Source: a virus
Lineage: Duplodnaviria > Heunggongvirae > Uroviricota > Caudoviricetes
Length of the DNA stretch: 6,466 bases
Virus record (IMG/VR): IMGVR_UViG_2606217106_000014
Span: 1-6,466 of that record
Direction: 5' to 3' (one strand)
In this document: piece after piece, positions 1 to 6,466 of the stretch
Position numbering within the stretch: the first letter of the stretch is position 1
How the letters are laid out: each line of letters starts with the position of its first letter
Position numbers and translations under genes: made by a program
Notes under the pieces: model-generated
Database searches by the model: none
Seen by the model: only the letters and a program-made list of their open reading frames with translations
Told to the model about the DNA's origin: nothing

Positions 1-328
1 CACAAGCAACTGATAATGCCCCCGGAGCAGGAGCATCTGTAGCACAGCGCGGGGTGTCGATAAGTTCCACTGGAACCAGAGTCGGAGAGGCCGGAAAAGA
101 TTGTGATACTGTAGGGCCTACAATAGTTGGAGGCATTCTACGAGAAATACGTCCTTCTCTTTGCCAGAGGCGTAGCCATTTAAAAATCAGGTTGTTATCA
201 ACGCCATGTTCCCGGGCCAGTTGTGCAACATTGGCATTTGGTTTCGAAGCCAGTTCAACCATATGAAGTTTAAATTCATTAGAAAATATCCGGCGGGTTC
301 CGGAGCGCCAGTCTGTAGGTTTATCCAT
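1..328 (-). CDS. IS transposase OrfA-like helix-turn-helix protein, N-terminal part (gene continues past window start)
   Basis: Not in the ORF track because it has no stop in the window. Reverse-strand translation from ATG (complement of 326-328) gives MDKPTDWRSGTRRIFSNEFKLHMVELASKPNANVAQLAREHGVDNNLIFKWLRLWQREGR..., open to position 1. The pattern FSxEFK...VAQLAREHGV..NLIFKWLR is typical of IS OrfA HTH domains. GGAG lies 8 nt upstream on the minus strand. Confidence 0.6.
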   Translation of the reverse strand, partial: MDKPTDWRSGTRRIFSNEFKLHMVELASKPNANVAQLAREHGVDNNLIFKWLRLWQREGRISRRMPPTIVGPTVSQSFPASPTLVPVELIDTPRCATDAPAPGALSVAC

Positions 329-341
329 CAATAGAACTCCG

Positions 342-368
342 TCTAATTTAGAAGGAGCTCTAATTTAG
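342..368. repeat. Two exact 10-bp direct repeats TCTAATTTAG (342-351 and 359-368) separated by 7 bp
   Basis: Read directly from the sequence. They lie between the OrfA start and the putative IS terminus, so they may be subterminal transposase-binding repeats. Confidence 0.5.
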
Positions 369-473
369 TCTGCAAGGAGCAGGTGTTACAGACGGCATTG
401 GCTTTACGCTTACCTTACTCTGAACGCCCACCGCGTCCGTCCCGCACATTCCAGCAACGCATCTGGAGGTAAC

Positions 474-1520
474 GTGCGGGTATTACTTCGACCTGTTCTG
501 GTACCGGAACTCGGGCTGGTGATCGTTAAGCCGGGCCGTGAATCCATGCCGGTATTCCACAATACCCGGGTACTGGTGGAGCCGGAACCGAAAAGCATGC
601 GTAATCTGCCGTCCGGGGTCGTTCCTGCCGTTCGCCAGCCGCTGGCGGAGGATAAATCATTACTGCCATTTTTCAGCGACGAACGAGTGATTCGTGCTGC
701 TGGTGGCGCTGGCGCATTGTCTGACTGGTTACTGCGCCATGTTAAATCCTGCCAGTGGCCACACGGCGATTATCACCACAGTGAAACCGTCATTCACCGT
801 TATGGTACCGGCGCAATGGTGTTGTGCTGGCACTGCGACAACCAGCTGCGCGACCAGACCTCCGAATCACTCGGGCAACTTGCTCACCAAAACCTGTCTG
901 CATGGATGATTGACGTCATACGCCATGCAATGAATGGCTCGCAGGAACGGGAATTATCGCTGGCTGAATTATCCTGGTGGGCGGTCCGCAATCAGGTGGC
1001 GGACGCGCTACCGGAAGCGGTATTACGTCGTTCGCTGGGGTTGCGTGCGGAAAAAATCCGCTCAATGTACCGTGAAAGCGACATCGTACCGGGAGAGCAG
1101 ACCGCCACCAGCATACTGAAGCAGCGCACAAAAAATCTTGCGCCGCTGCCTCACGCCCACCAGCAAACCCCGCCACAGGAAAAGACGGTGGTCAGCATTG
1201 CTGTTGATCCGGAGTCTCCGGAATCTTTAATGAAGCGACCTAAACGTCGCCGTTGGGTAAATGAGAAATATACGCGCTGGGTAAAGACACAGCCGTGTGC
1301 GTGTTGTGGTAAGCCAGCCGACGATCCCCATCACCTGATTGGTCATGGTCAGGGCGGAATAGGGACAAAAGCCCACGATATTTTCACGCTACCGTTGTGT
1401 CGGGAGCATCACAACGAACTTCATGCTGATCCGCTGGCATTTGAAGAAAAGCATGGTTCCCAGATTGATTTAATTTTTCGTTTTCTTGATCGCGCCTTTG
1501 CAACCGGCGTGCTCGGGTAA
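474..1520 (+). CDS. DUF968-family prophage protein (YdfU-like) with C-terminal Cys/His HNH-like motif
   Basis: 348-aa ORF with GTG start preceded by GGAGG (465-469). C-terminus CACCGKPADDPHHLIGHGQGGIGTKAHDIFTLPLCREHHNELH has CxxC...HH...C..HH..H spacing resembling an HNH/zinc-finger nuclease fold. Position immediately upstream of rusA and Q matches lambdoid nin regions. Confidence 0.8.
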   Translation: MRVLLRPVLVPELGLVIVKPGRESMPVFHNTRVLVEPEPKSMRNLPSGVVPAVRQPLAEDKSLLPFFSDERVIRAAGGAGALSDWLLRHVKSCQWPHGDYHHSETVIHRYGTGAMVLCWHCDNQLRDQTSESLGQLAHQNLSAWMIDVIRHAMNGSQERELSLAELSWWAVRNQVADALPEAVLRRSLGLRAEKIRSMYRESDIVPGEQTATSILKQRTKNLAPLPHAHQQTPPQEKTVVSIAVDPESPESLMKRPKRRRWVNEKYTRWVKTQPCACCGKPADDPHHLIGHGQGGIGTKAHDIFTLPLCREHHNELHADPLAFEEKHGSQIDLIFRFLDRAFATGVLG

Positions 1521-1532
1521 AAGAGGTTACTG

Positions 1533-1907
1533 ATGCGTATAGAGTTTGTTTTGCCTTACCCGCCGACGGTGAACACCTACTGGCGTCGTCGTGGCAGCAC
1601 ATATTTTGTATCAAAAGCCGGTGAGCGTTATCGCCGGGATGTGGCACTTATTGTCCGCCAGCAGCGGCTGAAATTAAACCTGTCCGGAAGGCTGGCAATA
1701 AAAATTACTGCAGAGCCACCGGATAAGCGCCGTCGTGACCTGGACAATATTCTGAAAGCACCACTGGATGCACTGACGCATGCGGGGCTTCTCATAGACG
1801 ACGAGCAGTTTGATGAAATCAATATTGTGCGCGGTCAGGTCGTTCCCGGTGGGCGGTTGGGCGTGAAAATTTACGAAATAATGCATGACGGGCAGGTCAA
1901 AAAATGA
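1533..1907 (+). CDS. rusA: RusA-family Holliday junction resolvase (crossover junction endodeoxyribonuclease)
   Basis: 124-aa ORF with RBS AAGAGG (1521-1526). PPDKRRRDLDNILKAPLDALTHAGLLIDDEQ matches the RusA catalytic core of E. coli RusA ([30 protein letters not shown]), as recalled. Confidence 0.9.
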   Translation: MRIEFVLPYPPTVNTYWRRRGSTYFVSKAGERYRRDVALIVRQQRLKLNLSGRLAIKITAEPPDKRRRDLDNILKAPLDALTHAGLLIDDEQFDEINIVRGQVVPGGRLGVKIYEIMHDGQVKK

Positions 1908-2725
1908 AGCTGGAAGATTTACCGAAATACTATTCCCCGAAATCGCCTGGCCTGACCGATGCGTCCGCCTCGACATCAAAAGATGCGCTGAGTATCACTG
2001 ATGTGATGGCCGCGCAGGGCATGACACAAAATCGGGCTGAGATGGGTTTTTCTGCGTTCCTTAGGAAAATGGGCATTAGTATGAATGACAGAGAGCGGGC
2101 AACAGAATTGCTGACAGAATATGCACTCAGTCGGTGTGATCGCGTGGCGGCGTTAAGAAAACTCCCGGCAGAAATAAAACCGGTAGTGATGCGCATTATG
2201 GCTTCGTACGCTTTTGAGGATTATGCCCGCAGCGCAGCGAGTAAAAAGCAGTGCCCTTGTTGCTATGGGGAAAAATTTATTGAAAGCGTAGTTTTTACAA
2301 ACAAGGTCCAGTATCCGGATGGTAAGCCGCCGGTATGGGCAAAGTGTACGAAAGGTGTGTATCCGTCTTACTGGGAAGAATGGAAAAAAGTCAGGGAGGT
2401 GGTAAAAGTTGCCTGTCCGGAGTGTGGCGGAAAGGGTGAGGTTTCCACCGCCTGTAAGGATTGCCGTGGGCGTGGTGTCGCCATTCATCGTGAAGAGTCG
2501 GTAAAACGTGGTATGCCTGTTATCAGAGACTGCCAGCGTTGTGGTGGTCGTGGCTGTGAAAGACTACCATCAACGGAGGCATTTAATGCCATATGCAAAG
2601 TGACGAGTGCTATCACGCTTGATACGTGGAAAAAATCAGTGAAACGCTTTTACGATACGTTGGTGGTTCGGTTTGACATTGAAGAGGCATGGGCGGAGCG
2701 GCAGTTAAAGAGGGTAACGCGATAG
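1904..2725 (+). CDS. Q: Lambda-family late antiterminator Q with expanded CxxC zinc-binding region
   Basis: 273 aa. N-terminus (YYSPKSPGLTDASASTSKDALSITDVMAAQGM) and C-terminus (TWKKSVKRFYDTLVV...RVTR) align by eye with lambda Q. Four CxxC motifs, three of them CxxCxGxG (CPECGGKG, CKDCRGRG, CQRCGGRG). ATG overlaps the rusA stop (ATGA at 1904-1907). Confidence 0.85.
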   Translation: MKLEDLPKYYSPKSPGLTDASASTSKDALSITDVMAAQGMTQNRAEMGFSAFLRKMGISMNDRERATELLTEYALSRCDRVAALRKLPAEIKPVVMRIMASYAFEDYARSAASKKQCPCCYGEKFIESVVFTNKVQYPDGKPPVWAKCTKGVYPSYWEEWKKVREVVKVACPECGGKGEVSTACKDCRGRGVAIHREESVKRGMPVIRDCQRCGGRGCERLPSTEAFNAICKVTSAITLDTWKKSVKRFYDTLVVRFDIEEAWAERQLKRVTR

Positions 2726-2730
2726 TGTTG

Positions 2731-2775
2731 TTGATTTTTCCCGAATCTGTGGTAAATTTGCTCTAACGATGGGCG
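2731..2775 (+). promoter_or_regulatory. pR'-like late promoter with qut (Q-utilisation) site
   Basis: TTGATT (2731-2736), 16-bp spacer, extended -10 TGgTAAATT (2750-2758), then TGCTCTAACGATGGG. This closely resembles lambda pR' (TAAATTTGACTCAACGATGGG), including the AACGAT pause-inducing element (2765-2770). Sits directly downstream of Q. Confidence 0.7.
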
Positions 2776-2806
2776 TTTTATGCCTGACGTTATAAGATTT
2801 TTTACA

Positions 2807-2831
2807 CCCCGCCGCCTGGCGGGTTTTTTTA
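2807..2831 (+). terminator. tR'-like intrinsic terminator
   Basis: Stem CCCGCC (2808-2813) / GGCGGG (2818-2823), loop GCCT, then T7 (2824-2830). Predicts a short pR' transcript of about 65 nt. Confidence 0.75.
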
Positions 2832-2952
2832 TGACTGAAATCGCGTCAGTACAGTAAACGCGCTGGTGGCGGTGAATACCTGTCTTTCAGCTTGCTGGCT
2901 TTTTCGACAAGAGTTATTGGTGTGTCACGTTAACCGGAAAAGGGAAAAAGAC

Positions 2953-3150
2953 ATGCTAAAACAGCAGGATATGACAGAAACCGCCAGAGTAGTGTTTAAT
3001 GAATTAAGCGTTACCGAACCGGCGACAGTCGGGGAGATTGCACAGAATACTTACCTTTCACGCGAACGCTGCCAGTTAATACTGACCCAGCTGGTTATGG
3101 CGGGTCTGGCAGACTATCAGTTCGGTTGTTACAGACGCCTTCCGCAGTGA
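2953..3150 (+). CDS. Small hypothetical protein (65 aa), possible winged-helix DNA-binding protein
   Basis: ATG at 2953 preceded by AAAAGGGAAAAAGAC. Translation MLKQQDMTETARVVFNELSVTEPATVGEIAQNTYLSRERCQLILTQLVMAGLADYQ has an HTH-like segment (TVGEIAQNTYLSRERCQLIL). The track's upstream start at 2866 has no RBS. Function unknown. Confidence 0.45.
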   Translation: MLKQQDMTETARVVFNELSVTEPATVGEIAQNTYLSRERCQLILTQLVMAGLADYQFGCYRRLPQ

Positions 3151-3160
3151 AGGCTTTTTT
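3137..3160 (+). terminator. Intrinsic terminator overlapping the stop codon of the small ORF
   Basis: Stem GCCTTC (3137-3142) / GAAGGC (3149-3154), loop CGCAGT, then T6 (3155-3160) and ATTT. Confidence 0.65.
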
Positions 3161-3177
3161 ATTTGTGGTAAATGGGC

Positions 3178-3208
3178 GGCTGGTGGGTGTTAGGGGCACC
3201 CACCAGCC
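3178..3208. promoter_or_regulatory. Perfect 12-bp inverted repeat GGCTGGTGGGTG-N7-CACCCACCAGCC upstream of the methyltransferase
   Basis: Read directly. No T-run follows, so it is not a canonical terminator; could be an operator or RNA processing/stability element. It is preceded by TGTGGTAAAT (3164-3173), which duplicates the pR' -10 region (2748-2757). Confidence 0.4.
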
Positions 3209-3300
3209 ATCTGCTCATGCGTTGGGTTCACAAGCAAACCTCAGGCCCACTGCTTTGCGCAAAAGCAGAATGAGCCTATCAGAGACAGGCTTAATGATCC

Positions 3301-4350
3301 ATGCTTAATACTGTAAAAATATCCAGTTGTGAGTTAATCAACGCCGACTGCCTGGAATTTATCCGGTCGTTACCCGAAAATTCTGTTGACCTGATAGTCA
3401 CGGACCCGCCGTACTTTAAAGTGAAGCCTGAGGGCTGGGATAACCAGTGGAAGGGCGACGATGATTACCTGAAGTGGCTGGACCAGTGTCTGGCGCAGTT
3501 CTGGCGGGTGCTGAAACCTGCCGGAAGTCTTTACCTGTTCTGTGGTCATCGCCTGGCATCTGATATCGAAATCATGATGCGTGAACGCTTCAGTGTGCTG
3601 AACCATATTATCTGGGCGAAGCCGTCCGGACGCTGGAACGGATGCAACAAGGAAAGCCTGCGGGCGTATTTCCCCGCCACAGAGCGCATTCTGTTCGCGG
3701 AACATTATCAGGGGCCGTATCGTCCGAAAGATGCCGGGTATGCGGCGAAGGGCAGTGCACTGAAACAGCATGTGATGGCCCCGCTGATTTCTTACTTTCG
3801 TGATGCGCGCGCGGCCCTGGGGATAACGGCAAAACAGATTGCAGATGCCACAGGAAAGAAAAACATGGTGTCGCACTGGTTCAGTGCCAGTCAGTGGCAG
3901 TTGCCGAACGAAAGCGATTATCTGAAATTACAGGCGCTGTTTGCCCGGGTGGCAGAAGAGAAACATCAGCGCGGTGAACTGGAAAAGCCCCACCACCAGC
4001 TGGTGGATACGTATACGTCACTGAACCGGCAGTATGTGGAGCTGCAGAGTGAATATAAGCATCTGCGGCGGTATTTTGGTGTGACGGCGCAGGTGCCGTA
4101 CACGGATGTGTGGACACATAAACCGGTGCAGTTCTATCCCGGGAAACATCCGTGCGAAAAACCGGCAGAAATGCTGCAGCAGATAATCAGCGCAAGCAGT
4201 CGTCCGGGTGACCTGGTTGCAGATTTTTTTATGGGCTCAGGTTCAACGGTAAAGGCGGCTATGGCGCTTGGGCGTCGTGCAATTGGTGTTGAGCTGGAGA
4301 CCGGACGTTTTGAGCAGACAGTCAGGGAAGTTCAGGATTTAATCGTTTGA
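3301..4350 (+). CDS. Orphan DNA N6-adenine methyltransferase, beta class (N6_N4_Mtase type)
   Basis: 349 aa. Motif IV DPPY near the N-terminus (LIVTDPPYF) and motif I FxGxGS near the C-terminus (DFFMGSGSTVKAAMALGRRAIGVE), i.e. the permuted IV->TRD->I order of beta-class amino-MTases. No restriction endonuclease partner in the window. Confidence 0.9.
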   Translation: MLNTVKISSCELINADCLEFIRSLPENSVDLIVTDPPYFKVKPEGWDNQWKGDDDYLKWLDQCLAQFWRVLKPAGSLYLFCGHRLASDIEIMMRERFSVLNHIIWAKPSGRWNGCNKESLRAYFPATERILFAEHYQGPYRPKDAGYAAKGSALKQHVMAPLISYFRDARAALGITAKQIADATGKKNMVSHWFSASQWQLPNESDYLKLQALFARVAEEKHQRGELEKPHHQLVDTYTSLNRQYVELQSEYKHLRRYFGVTAQVPYTDVWTHKPVQFYPGKHPCEKPAEMLQQIISASSRPGDLVADFFMGSGSTVKAAMALGRRAIGVELETGRFEQTVREVQDLIV

Positions 4351-4399
4351 AACGGATGAGATTGCAGAATTAATTACGCACCATTATTATTCTGCTCCC

Positions 4400-4475
4400 G
4401 GCCCTTTAGCTCAGTGGTGAGAGCGAGCGACTCATAATCGCCAGGTCGCTGGTTCAAATCCAGCAAGGGCCACCA
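4400..4475 (+). tRNA. tRNA-Ile2 (anticodon CAU, ileX/ileZ-like; automated tools may call it Met)
   Basis: 76-nt cloverleaf: acceptor GGCCCTT/AAGGGCC, D-arm GCTC...GAGC, anticodon loop CTCATAA, T-arm GCTGG-TTCAAAT-CCAGC, discriminator A, encoded CCA. Near-identical in layout to E. coli ileX as recalled. Confidence 0.85.
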
Positions 4476-4482
4476 TCACATA

Positions 4483-4559
4483 CCGCCATTAGCTCATCAG
4501 GAAAGAGCGCCAGCCTTCGAAGCTGGTTGCGCGGAGTTCGGGTCCCCGAAGGCGGTCCA
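4483..4559 (+). tRNA. tRNA-Arg-like, apparent anticodon UCG, with non-canonical features
   Basis: D-arm GCTC...GAGC, anticodon stem CCAGC/GCTGG with loop CTTCGAA, T-loop TTCGGGT, 3' CCA. Acceptor CCGCCAT/AAGGCGG has one mismatch and starts with C; the T-stem has one mismatch. Boundaries +/- 2 nt. Confidence 0.6.
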
Positions 4560-4572
4560 TTATCTGTATCCT

Positions 4573-4649
4573 GCGTTGTTAGCTCAGCCGGACAGAGCAA
4601 TTGCCTTCTAAGCAATCGGTCACTGGTTCGAATACAGTAGAACGCGCCA
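4573..4649 (+). tRNA. tRNA-Arg (anticodon UCU)
   Basis: Acceptor GCGTTGT/AGAACGC (one mismatch), D-arm GCTC...GAGC, anticodon stem ATTGC/GCAAT with loop CTTCTAA, T-loop TTCGAAT, discriminator G, encoded CCA. Confidence 0.8.
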
Positions 4650-4664
4650 CACTTATTTTCCCTG

Positions 4665-4688
4665 GCTCGCTTTTGCGGGCTTTTTTTT
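4665..4688 (+). terminator. Intrinsic terminator downstream of the tRNA cluster
   Basis: Stem GCTCGC (4665-4670) / GCGGGC (4675-4680) with one G-U pair, loop TTTT, then T8 (4681-4688). Confidence 0.6.
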
Positions 4689-4900
4689 AAATGTCTCATA
4701 ATTCAGGCGGTTGACTGTTGTCTGGTTTGCGGGGAGTTTGTTAAAAGAAACTGGCATGGTGAATCCCCCTGTGCGGAGGGGCAATCAGCAACTGGTGTTT
4801 TGTCACCGACCCTTATCCTTTCTGTGCGGGTTCAGGTGCTGATACTGAACTCACCGGGAGGCACCCGGCACCATGCAATGGCACATAGCGCCACTCTCCA

Positions 4901-4925
4901 GCCCCTCTCCGGAGGGGCTTTCTTA
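4901..4925 (+). terminator. GC-rich hairpin with weak U-tract (terminator-like or RNA structural element)
   Basis: Perfect 8-bp stem AGCCCCTC (4901-4908) / GAGGGGCT (4913-4920), tetraloop TCCG, then TTCTT. Confidence 0.35.
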
Positions 4926-4930
4926 TGGAC

Positions 4931-4958
4931 AAAAAAATCCCGCGCTGGGAGACGCGGG
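4931..4958 (-). terminator. Minus-strand intrinsic terminator
   Basis: On the minus strand: stem CCCGCG (4958-4953) / CGCGGG (4944-4939), 8-nt loop, then A and T7 (4937-4931). Confidence 0.45.
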
Positions 4959-5152
4959 CGGCAAGGAATAAACAACAAAACGTGAAGTAATATTTCAGTT
5001 GGCGAATAATATCCGACAGTAATCACTCTGCGCAATAGCGCGGCCTTTTTCGTATTGCGGGCTGTTGTCTATCTTCTGCCATTGTCCTGTAACTTCCGGA
5101 CTTCAGCCCGCTCCTCATTTTACTCACAATATTATCCAGGCCGGGAGGATTC

Positions 5153-6466
5153 ATGGCATTTAAACACTATGACGTGGTCAGGGCGGCGTCGCCGTCAGAC
5201 CTTGCGGAGCGACTGACACAAAAACTGAAGGAAGGCTGGCAGCCGTTTGGCAGTCCTGTGGCTATCACGCCTTATACACTGATGCAGGCCATTGCCGCAG
5301 AGGGTGATGTGACCACGCCTGTGGTTGTGCCCGACACAGGGGCTGGTGGCTCTCCGGGAGTGGCTACCACTGAACCGGAGTATTACTACGTTATTCCCCA
5401 GGCCGGGCAGTCGAACGGTATGGCCTATGGTGAGGGGCTTCCTCTGCCGGAGACCTATGATCGCCCTGACTCCCGTATTAAGCAGCTGGCCCGTCGCAGC
5501 ACTGTGACGCCGGGTGGTGATACCTGTGCATACAATGACGTTATTCCGGCAGACCACTGTCTGCATGATGTTCAGGACATGAGCGCACTTAACCATCCTC
5601 ATGCAGACCTGAGTAAGGGCCAGTACGGGACTGTCGGTCAGGGGCTGCATATTGCCAAAAAACTGCTGCCTTATATCCCGCAGAATGCCGGGATTCTTCT
5701 GGTGCCCTGTTGCCGTGGCGGGTCTGGTTTAACCGTGGGTAATGACGGCACGTTCAGCGAAACGTCTGGCGCATCGGCAAATTCAGCCCGCTGGGGAGTG
5801 GGTAAACCGCTGTATCAGGATTTTCTCTTCCGTACAAAAGCGGCGCTGTCGAAGAACCCGAAAAACAGGCTTCTGGCCGTGGTATGGATGCAGGGGGAAA
5901 ATGATCTTGCGGACGGCAGTCAGCAGCACAGCGGCCTGTTTACCACTATGGTGCAGCAGTTCAGGGCTGATATGGCTGCATATTCTGCACAGTGTGTTGG
6001 CGGAAGTGCTGGCTCGGTGCCGTGGATTTGTGGTGACACCACGTATTACTGGAAGAATCTTAACGCCGATAAATATGAGGCGGTATATGGCGGTTACAAG
6101 GGCAGGGAAGCACAGAATATTTTCTTTGTTCCTTTTATGACGGATGAGAATGGACAGAGCACGCCAACGAATGCTCCGGCGGAAGACCCGGATATTGTGG
6201 CTGTCGGGTATTACGGTGCAGCATCCCGAACCCAGGGCAGTTTTGTTTCGACACAGCGTGACAGCCATTTCAGCTCATGGGCACGCAGGGGCGTCATTTC
6301 AGACCGTCTGGCCTCAGCTATTATGCTCCATGCAGGGCGCACGGCTGAATTGATGCGCGGGCAGACCGTGACACCACCGGATGAGAAGCCGTCACCTGAT
6401 ACACCATCAAAACCGTCCACGCCACCCGCAGACACCACGACGATGAGTACGCTATTTGCTTACCGG
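5153..6466 (+). CDS. nanS-p: NanS-p-type prophage sialate O-acetylesterase (DUF1737 N-domain + SASA/SGNH esterase domain), 5' partial - runs off window end
   Basis: Not in the ORF track because there is no stop in the window; 438 codons open from ATG 5153 (RBS GGGAGGA) to 6466. Translation MAFKHYDVVRAASPSDLAERLTQKLKEGWQPFGSPVAITPYTLMQAIAAEG... then YYYVIPQAGQSNGMAYGEG (GQSN catalytic-serine block), and a Pro/Thr-rich linker TPPDEKPSPDTPSKPSTPPADTTT near the window end. Confidence 0.85.
   Translation, partial: MAFKHYDVVRAASPSDLAERLTQKLKEGWQPFGSPVAITPYTLMQAIAAEGDVTTPVVVPDTGAGGSPGVATTEPEYYYVIPQAGQSNGMAYGEGLPLPETYDRPDSRIKQLARRSTVTPGGDTCAYNDVIPADHCLHDVQDMSALNHPHADLSKGQYGTVGQGLHIAKKLLPYIPQNAGILLVPCCRGGSGLTVGNDGTFSETSGASANSARWGVGKPLYQDFLFRTKAALSKNPKNRLLAVVWMQGENDLADGSQQHSGLFTTMVQQFRADMAAYSAQCVGGSAGSVPWICGDTTYYWKNLNADKYEAVYGGYKGREAQNIFFVPFMTDENGQSTPTNAPAEDPDIVAVGYYGAASRTQGSFVSTQRDSHFSSWARRGVISDRLASAIMLHAGRTAELMRGQTVTPPDEKPSPDTPSKPSTPPADTTTMSTLFAYR

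Follow-up and report, generated by a model that had tools for sequence, protein, structure and literature searches.

The DNA examined here is a 6466-bp stretch from a phage (Caudoviricetes; IMG/VR record IMGVR_UViG_2606217106_000014, positions 1 to 6,466), which we call the window; our subject is a cassette of three tRNA genes within it, and above all the middle gene, argN. ARAGORN finds exactly these three tRNA genes, all on the plus strand, and none elsewhere in the 6466 bp. They are listed below with their scores against the Rfam tRNA model RF00005, whose gathering score is 29 bits.

4400-4475, plus strand: ileZ, anticodon CAU (CAT); ARAGORN; RF00005, 72.5 bits
4483-4559, plus strand: argN, anticodon UCG (TCG), reads CGA/CGG; ARAGORN tRNA-Arg(tcg); RF00005, 43.4 bits
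4573-4649, plus strand: argO, tRNA-Arg(UCU), reads AGA/AGG; ARAGORN; RF00005, 53.4 bits

An initial annotation, made from the letters of the sequence alone, had given three tRNAs with these coordinates and anticodons, and ARAGORN and Rfam agree with it exactly; the codons that it expected them to read are also right.

A known cassette of Stx prophages

The order CAU-UCG-UCU, on one strand and within about 250 bp, is that of the ileZ-argN-argO cassette. A 371-bp query around the tRNA genes matched 289 phage records, mostly at 90-95% identity and mostly from phages that convert their hosts to production of Shiga toxin 2 (Stx2); the GenBank annotation of matched phage records names the three genes ileZ, argN and argO. 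The best identity to a phage record was 94.9%, and chromosomal prophages reached 99.6%. We searched 5426 complete E. coli genomes with a 271-bp core and found it in 3061 of them, at up to 13 places per genome; at least 223 genome records from this set are at least 99% identical to it. The closest genome copy, that of E. coli H3 (99.6%), differs solely by a C to T change at 4557, which turns the encoded CCA of argN into UCA. The Prokaryotic Genome Annotation Pipeline (PGAP) labels the H3 copy as one tRNA-Ile and then two tRNA-Arg genes, with no pseudogene flags. We conclude that the segment is a copy of the known lambdoid/Stx-prophage cassette ileZ(CAU)-argN(UCG)-argO(UCU), and that it is not new. 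No paper that names all three genes was found by searching the literature in full text.

To compare alleles, cassettes were gathered from IMG/VR, GTDB genomes and metagenomes, with the 3' end of ileZ, the 5' end of argN and the anticodon arm of argO as anchors. Among 67 unique ileZ-argN-argO haplotypes, nucleotide diversity is 0.014 for ileZ, 0.026 for argO and 0.068 for argN, values in which anchored searching biases the anchored part of each gene towards conservation. In the same haplotypes, the parts outside the genes have diversities of 0.185 (spacer 2) and 0.26-0.30 (flanks), and the 7-nt spacer 1 of 0.008. Even so, argN is clearly the least constrained of the three genes, although spacer 2 and the flanks are under less constraint still.

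Structure-disrupting substitutions in both arginine tRNA genes

The anticodon loop of the window argN, CTTCGAA, has the canonical seven nucleotides (C32 U33 U34 C35 G36 A37 A38), including U33 and a purine at 37. The initial annotation had noted this loop together with mismatches in the acceptor and T stems, and all of these are indeed in the sequence: A6·A67 in the acceptor and A52·C62 in the T stem, so that the stems lack the full pairing of a canonical elongator tRNA. To these we can add a third change that had gone unremarked. The T loop, TTCGGGT, has G58 rather than A58, departing from the conserved T loop, although G53-C61 is retained; A58 is near-universal in tRNAs, where it partners T54 of the same loop. 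The gene also retains C1-G72, U73, the encoded CCA, A20, C35 and G36. The identity elements for E. coli arginyl-tRNA synthetase (ArgRS) are A20, C35, U or G at 36, and A or G at 73. The C1 start, previously listed among the non-canonical features, is present but is not a defect, as C1-G72 occurs in 87 of 89 unique members of the argN scaffold family. The discriminator U73 is found in 64 of the 89 family alleles, with A73 in relatives, and both C1-G72 and U73 are family traits rather than defects.

The three changes are not typical of argN. The 90 argN-type copies that we collected represent 43 alleles, and 49 copies (19 alleles) are fully paired with all near-universal nucleotides in place; these intact forms vary only at tolerant positions, namely 17 and 20a in the D loop, the variable loop, 57, and G·U versus G-C at 51:63. 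The consensus allele has fully paired acceptor and T stems, and the anticodon UCG is present in 88 of the 90 copies. The window allele falls in a clade (21 copies, 10 alleles) whose members have A6·A67, A52·C62 and G58 in common, and within which further disruptive changes are seen (CCA to UCA, A50·C64 and U10·C25). Judged by this comparison of alleles, the argN mismatches are derived defects of one clade and not properties of argN as such.

The damage is visible in the scores, since the window allele reaches 43.4 bits against 56.0-58.4 for consensus alleles, a fall of at least 12.6. Nevertheless, it lies above the RF00005 threshold and is called by ARAGORN, and PGAP calls a variant that differs by one nucleotide a tRNA-Arg, with no pseudogene flag. 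The earlier idea of a diverged functional tRNA therefore stands only in part: the window copy passes ARAGORN and Rfam, but its mismatches are specific to one clade, whereas 49 of 90 argN copies are perfect cloverleaves. In minimum-free-energy (MFE) folding the consensus argN forms a cloverleaf and the window allele loses its canonical acceptor and T arms (MFE z-score, -0.45), a result of little weight here because the MFE structure of the consensus argO is not a cloverleaf either.

The window argO is also damaged, which the initial annotation had not mentioned. It has G6·G67 in the acceptor and G53·A61 in the T arm, and so has neither a fully paired acceptor nor the G53-C61 pair; the consensus argO allele is free of both mismatches. 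Its score is 53.4 bits, compared with 68-70.1 for consensus alleles, a fall of 16.7 from 70.1. This argO allele was found in 4 of 82 cassettes, all inside the defective-argN clade. In this haplotype, position 6:67 is occupied by two purines in both arginine tRNAs (mismatches A·A at 4488/4550 in argN and G·G at 4578/4640 in argO), and each also has a T-arm defect.

The consensus ileZ allele

The window ileZ is the consensus allele (72.5 bits in both cases). We collected 148 copies of CAU tRNAs, and 112 of them have this allele; the remaining 22 alleles include chromosomal ileX-like genes of other genera. The ends of ileZ, GGCCC.../...GGGCC, give C4-G69 and C5-G68, a body of the ileX type rather than the Met type. 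The sequence is near chromosomal ileX-type genes of other Enterobacterales, and PGAP labels near-identical copies tRNA-Ile. In the literature, C4-G69 and C5-G68 are the determinants for TilS. These features lead us to read ileZ as tRNA-Ile2, decoding AUA and presumably modified to lysidine, and not as tRNA-Met. A mismatch at the top of the anticodon stem, A27·C43 (4426/4442), is present in all phage ileZ copies; the sampled chromosomal ileX-type genes of other Enterobacterales have G·U at 27:43. We rejected an Rfam match to 'Plastid-ycf2 5'UTR' (4400-4473, minus strand; 36.3 bits against a gathering score of 65.7) as an artefact, being the reverse strand of ileZ.

The middle slot in related cassettes

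In related cassettes (loci designated L followed by a number), the slot occupied by argN holds a recognizable scaffold. Its acceptor is CCGCCA[U/C]...[A/G]UGGCGG, its D arm UAGCUCAUC[A/G]GGA.AGAGC and its T arm CG[G/A]GG-UUCGAG[U/G]-CC[C/U]CG, followed by an encoded CCA. The forms of the anticodon region on this scaffold are as follows.

CUUCGAA: Arg, UCG; 73 copies
UUUCGAA: Arg, UCG; 14 copies
CUUCUAA: UCU
CUGCGAA: GCG
CUUAUAA: UAU
CCUUUAA: Lys-like (UUU), with C33; 25 copies (L012 1403-1479 and 24 others)
CUUUUAU: 1 copy
5-6-nt loops: non-canonical size; 69 copies, for example L157 5537-5609, L163 923-996 and L366 5081-5154 (E. coli FAM21845)
12-13-nt loops CACGAUAACAGG, with a ruined T loop, GCGGGU: about 30 copies (L144, L087, L104, L073 and others), for example L026 7602-7682
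Anticodon arm removed by a 16-nt deletion: dead; L106 and L044
5' half of argN fused to the 3' half of argO at their common CCUUCxAAGC anticodon region: dead; L051 (3 copies)

Annotation follows this variation unevenly. The forms with 12-13-nt loops are called by no tRNA finder, and the cassettes that hold them are those in which PGAP marks a tRNA-Ile and a single tRNA-Arg and nothing more, as it does in the ST131 strain EC958, at about 90% identity to the window. The Lys-like gene with C33 bears the label tRNA-Lys in certain records, whereas other records pass over it. Its loop, CCUUUAA, is presumably the host tRNA-Lys loop, CUUUUAA, but for U33C; U33 is universal in tRNA anticodon loops. The short-loop forms fall below the Rfam tRNA gathering score, and in E. 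coli FAM21845 PGAP leaves such an element unannotated between tRNA-Ile and tRNA-Thr, in the interval from an antiterminator gene to a holin gene.

The arms of the scaffold covary. At position 7:66, 45 sequences have U-A and 38 have C-G, and several pair types occur at 27:43 and 30:40. Overall, 91.3% of cells are paired, as against at most 51% in slid controls, and the observed covariation was reached in 0 of 500 shuffles. For the anticodon stem of the short-loop forms, which both MAFFT and covariance-model alignments mis-register (23 'other' cells), an anchored parse was used. When metagenomes were scanned with a 16-mer from the scaffold, most matches were to unrelated contigs from soil and water, and only some were to family members.

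The short-loop group concentrates its change in the loop. It has 16 loop variants in 69 copies, and seven different NNN-AU triplets stand on one fully identical 68-nt body, half of the short-loop body being fixed by the search pattern; the 3' 37 nt, the sole part free of that constraint, have 9 segregating sites. The 6-nt loops follow C-NNN-R-U. They look like a normal loop minus U33, and the 5-nt loops like one minus 32 and 33, in each case with a triplet apparently free to change. Targeted loop mutagenesis by a diversity-generating retroelement found no evidence in the short-loop set, whose variable positions are not adenine-specific. Change concentrated in this way in the loop would not be expected of a uniformly decaying pseudogene; the sequences suggest that either the loop is unconstrained on a selected body or the triplet is under diversifying selection. 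This argument is not directly applicable to the window argN, because there the loop is canonical and the body is the damaged part.

Seven triplets on one 68-nt body, loops that lack U33 or both C32 and U33, in members that tRNA finders miss, and compensatory evolution of the arms together raise a tentative proposal, which we rate as quite improbable: the middle slot may hold not chiefly a decoder but a conserved tRNA-shaped scaffold displaying a fast-changing anticodon triplet. Such RNAs might act as decoys or inhibitors of anticodon-specific nucleases in conflicts between prophages or between host and phage, or alternatively might be nuclease-proof substitutes such as the Lys-like form with C33. 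The UCG copy in the window would then be one member, now decaying, of an arms-race family.

Neighbourhood and expression signals

The window holds, in order, DUF968/ydfU, rusA, Q, a small open reading frame (ORF), a DNA methyltransferase gene (MTase), the three tRNA genes, STnc100 and nanS-p. Its placement in a prophage late region between Q/MTase and STnc100/nanS-p agrees with the phage context first proposed, and a position 3' of Q and 5' of nanS-p is that of the ileZ-argN-argO cassette. The related loci L001, L153 and L365 have the same order: Q - MTase - tRNAs - (stx2AB) - STnc100 - nanS-p - holin. The features that surround the cassette are these.

1904-2725, plus strand: Q-type antitermination protein gene, 273 aa (ORF; homologous loci annotated 'antitermination protein' or quuQ)
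2731-2759, plus strand: late-promoter-like sequence, TTGATT-17-TAAATT (sequence)
2808-2830, plus strand: strong terminator-like hairpin and T run directly after Q (terminator scan)
3301-4350, plus strand: DNA methyltransferase gene, directly 5' of the cassette (ORF; annotation of homologous loci)
4362-4390, plus strand: candidate sigma-70 promoter, with -35 TTGCAG (4362-4367), a 17-bp spacer and -10 TATTAT (4385-4390) (sequence)
4664-4689, plus strand: intrinsic-terminator-like hairpin GGCTCGC-TTTT-GCGGGCT and T run, closing the cassette (terminator scan)
4725-4930, plus strand: prophage small RNA of the STnc100 family (Rfam RF02076, 143.2 bits, full-length match)
5153-6466, plus strand: nanS-p (SASA-family sialate O-acetylesterase), of which the window includes the 5' part (open frame that starts with the ATG at 5153)

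The candidate promoter lies directly before ileZ, with a GC-rich discriminator of 9 nt, TCTGCTCCC, between its -10 hexamer and the 5' end of the gene. In a comparison of 64 unique upstream sequences, taken from related loci, the spacing of the conserved TTGC (-38..-35) and TAtnAT (-15..-10) is fixed and the 17-bp spacer is variable. The conserved hexamers are comparative evidence for a real sigma-70 promoter, and presumably it functions as one, with a predicted transcript start near 4397. A consensus promoter scanner did not list 4362-4390, where the -35 element matches the consensus at only three of six positions. At the other end, a hairpin follows argO in most related cassettes, with variants of stem and loop, the sequence 3' of argO having been taken by ARAGORN coordinates.

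By the gene order of lambdoid phages, the promoter-like sequence and hairpin after Q (2731-2830) can be read as a pR'/tR'-like pair, and for this reason the tRNA genes probably lie inside a Q-dependent late transcript. The motif TGTGGTAAAT occurs at 2749-2758 and is repeated at 3164-3173, just past a second terminator-like hairpin (3137-3154). We also considered, and rejected, the idea that the tRNA genes are what is left of a host tRNA gene that served as a prophage attachment site, since the cassette lies inside the prophage, in the region from Q to the lysis genes, with a conserved promoter of its own.

Downstream, the STnc100 element follows the cassette in relatives, with up to four tandem copies in L038 (2265-3380). 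In an Stx2a phage (Stx2_EH1910), argO and the STnc100-like segment are separated by stx2AB. STnc100 is linked with PasD and with esterase genes in a 2026 preprint. Loci homologous to nanS-p are annotated as SASA family carbohydrate esterase or yjhS. The E. coli H3 prophage (L365), which has the same cassette haplotype as the window, also encodes QueH, an epoxyqueuosine reductase that acts in tRNA modification (1463-2128), and hokD; other relatives have sok, C4 antisense and isrK RNAs (L041, L060).

Codon usage

AUA, CGA, CGG, AGA and AGG are among the rarest sense codons of E. coli in standard codon tables. We compared the 1601 codons of the window ORFs with the 13,248 codons of 39 core genes near oriC in K-12, a baseline in which the common synonymous codons far outnumber AUA, AGA and AGG. 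Four codons that the cassette would read are over-used in the window:

AUA: 9.4 against 3.2 per 1000 (2.9x; p=3e-4)
AGA: 3.7 against 1.1 per 1000 (3.5x; p=0.008)
AGG: 6.9 against 0.5 per 1000 (15x; p=4e-10)
CGG: 13.7 against 3.6 per 1000 (3.8x; p=2e-7)

The initial annotation would have taken a pseudogene call for the middle gene, together with no enrichment of the matching codons, as refuting it. This outcome was not observed: the window argN passes ARAGORN and Rfam, PGAP gives the copy that differs by 1 nt no pseudogene flag, and the matching codons are enriched in the flanking genes for these four, if not significantly for CGA. The codon enrichment supports the classical rare-codon explanation without proving it.

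Interpretation

We consider it fairly probable, from the alleles compared here, that the window carries a rare-codon supplement cassette whose two arginine genes are weakened (hypomorphic) or decaying in this lineage, while ileZ is maintained. The cassette would be a self-contained unit with its own sigma-70-type promoter and terminator, an architecture of the 'moron' kind. As it would also lie in the Q-dependent late operon, it could be expressed in the lysogen and more strongly, by read-through, after induction. It would add decoders for AUA, CGA/CGG and AGA/AGG, all but CGA over-used by prophage genes. The three structure-disrupting substitutions in argN and two in argO would reflect weakening, or a path to pseudogenes, rather than a special adaptation. 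We infer the transcription and processing of the cassette, its charging by ArgRS and isoleucyl-tRNA synthetase (IleRS), its modification by TilS and its effect on fitness.

Several observations weigh against this interpretation. The defective haplotype is common (at least 223 records at 99% identity or more) and its argN is still called by ARAGORN, Rfam and PGAP, so the defective gene may retain function. Simple decay does not predict a purine-purine mismatch at 6:67 in both arginine genes. CGA, a codon of argN, is not enriched (4.4 against 3.2 per 1000; 1.3x; p=0.27); in the H3 prophage the late genes are enriched too, but less than the genes upstream of the cassette; and an AT-rich foreign codon bias would give the same pattern of enrichment. 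Finally, codon supplementation cannot explain the sister cassettes with Lys(UUU), as the codon which that tRNA serves is a common one.

How far the decay has gone is one point on which explanations divide. The window argN, and possibly argO, might be a dead pseudogene that is transcribed but not matured, charged or used, leaving ileZ as the only gene that matters; we regard this as possible, if on balance unlikely. Three argN defects, including loss of the A58 that partners T54, an MFE structure that is not a cloverleaf (z-score -0.45), a clade that keeps gaining disruptive changes and a diversity about five times that of ileZ all fit a dead gene. The same gene is clearly dead elsewhere, in the arm deletion of L106/L044, the chimera of L051 and the forms with 12-nt loops, and a 'pseudo-tRNA' in the cassette has been noted in the literature (PMC13641118). 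Yet the allele scores 43.4 bits against a threshold of 29, PGAP calls the copy that differs by 1 nt a tRNA-Arg with no pseudogene flag, and the anticodon loop, A20, C35, G36 and CCA end are intact. Moreover, argN diversity is three to four times below that of the neighbouring spacer and flanks, and single stem mismatches and A·C pairs are, as general knowledge has it, tolerated in many tRNAs. A further explanation is that the middle gene plays no part in decoding and that its tRNA-shaped body is what matters, as a nuclease decoy or competitive inhibitor or as a 'punctuation' element in processing, argN(UCG) being one displayed triplet among many. It would account for acceptor, D and T arms that are conserved with covariation in relatives (0/500 shuffles), for the 16 forms of 5-6-nt loop in 69 copies with seven triplets on an identical 68-nt body, and for short-loop forms that do not reach the gathering score for tRNAs and that PGAP does not annotate. 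We nevertheless think it very improbable: half of the short-loop body is fixed by the search pattern, with only the 3' 37 nt unbiased, and the argN subgroup has a canonical CUUCGAA loop with U33 and A37, UCG in 88 of 90 copies, and A20, C35 and G36. In the window allele it is the body that is damaged, the opposite of what a body-dependent function predicts.

A different role, in anti-defence, would have phage tRNAs mainly replace host tRNAs cut by anticodon nucleases or other tRNases of competing prophages, plasmids or colicins. Stem and loop changes would then confer resistance, with argN and argO backing up tRNA-Arg and ileZ backing up tRNA-Ile2. What draws attention to this role is the slot itself, which, after an ileZ-like gene and between antiterminator and lysis genes, also holds Lys(UUU)-like, Thr(UGU) and Gly(UCC) sets. 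The Lys member is not a rare-codon tRNA, and its loop, CCUUUAA, presumably departs from the host loop by U33C alone. In published experiments, phage tRNA-Lys(UUU) rescues cells from PARIS AriB, and tRNA-Thr(UGU) of phages, lambdoid phage 21 among them, from P2 OLD (PMC12445682); the phage 21 tRNA-Thr may be kin to the Thr gene of the cassette. Anticodon nucleases, HepS and RemAIN for example, are also encoded by lambdoid prophages (PMC13043305). The argO stems, too, are re-coded relative to K-12 argU with compensatory changes, but its anticodon loop is the same as that of argU and so bears no signature of loop evasion, and the arginine alleles of the window are structurally damaged rather than refined. 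In the literature searched, we found no phage-defence nuclease against tRNA-Arg or tRNA-Ile2. Colicin D is the only Arg-specific tRNase of which we know. Experimental support is limited to sister tRNAs, Thr and Lys, of other phages. For Arg, the decoy and the replacement of cleaved host tRNAs that the initial annotation had raised gain indirect support alone, from the sister cassettes (Lys-like, Thr, Gly) and the published results with the phage 21 tRNA-Thr. Overall, we judge an anti-defence role for these genes unlikely.

What the window holds is a textbook accessory tRNA cassette of Stx-type prophages, with a middle tRNA that is a known gene in a somewhat damaged allele. The wider implication is that copies of the cassette are not equivalent. 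Roughly half of the sampled argN copies are structurally impaired or dead, and counting 'extra tRNA genes' in enterohaemorrhagic and other E. coli therefore overstates functional capacity; annotators, moreover, treat the variants of the cassette inconsistently. If the variation of triplet and loop reflects selection, a very common prophage locus would be connected to tRNA-targeting defence and counter-defence.

Comparison with known systems

Each gene can be set beside a host counterpart, with the exception of argN: to our knowledge, the arginine anticodons of K-12 are ACG, CCG, UCU and CCU, with no UCG. Like K-12 argU (UCU), argO has the anticodon loop CUUCUAA and G73, but its acceptor, anticodon and T stems are re-coded, by changes that compensate one another. 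ileZ, beside which stand ileX/ileY (CAU, lysidine) of K-12, shares its CAU anticodon, C4-G69, C5-G68 and most of its sequence with the ileX-type genes of other Enterobacterales, and differs in the A27·C43 mismatch found in all its copies.

Phage tRNAs with roles in anti-defence include tRNA-Lys of the T5 family, active against PARIS, tRNA-Tyr against retron-Eco7 and phage tRNA-Thr(UGU) against P2 OLD (PMC11464382, PMC11555353, PMC12445682). The cassette resembles these in being a set of tRNAs encoded by a phage that otherwise depends on the host translation apparatus, and in having sister cassettes with ileZ, Lys-like, Thr(UGU) and Gly(UCC) genes at the same slot. The genes in the window differ in being damaged and in lacking specific evasive changes. 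In stx2i prophages, 'tRNA - pseudo-tRNA - Arg' variants have been reported in passing (PMC13641118). Judged by their description, these appear to be copies of this cassette in which, in most strains, the middle gene or the first is no longer called a normal tRNA.

With the ileZ-argN-argO cassette of Stx2 phages (933W/Sp5 type), the window shares the same genes in the same order and spacing, at 90-95% identity, and a position 3' of Q and 5' of stx2 or nanS-p. The tRNA genes of that Stx2-converting phage were reportedly described by Plunkett et al. in 1999, with the 933W genome. The window differs from the Stx2-phage cassette in having no stx, argO being followed instead by the terminator, STnc100 and nanS-p, and in the three and two extra disruptive substitutions of its argN and argO.

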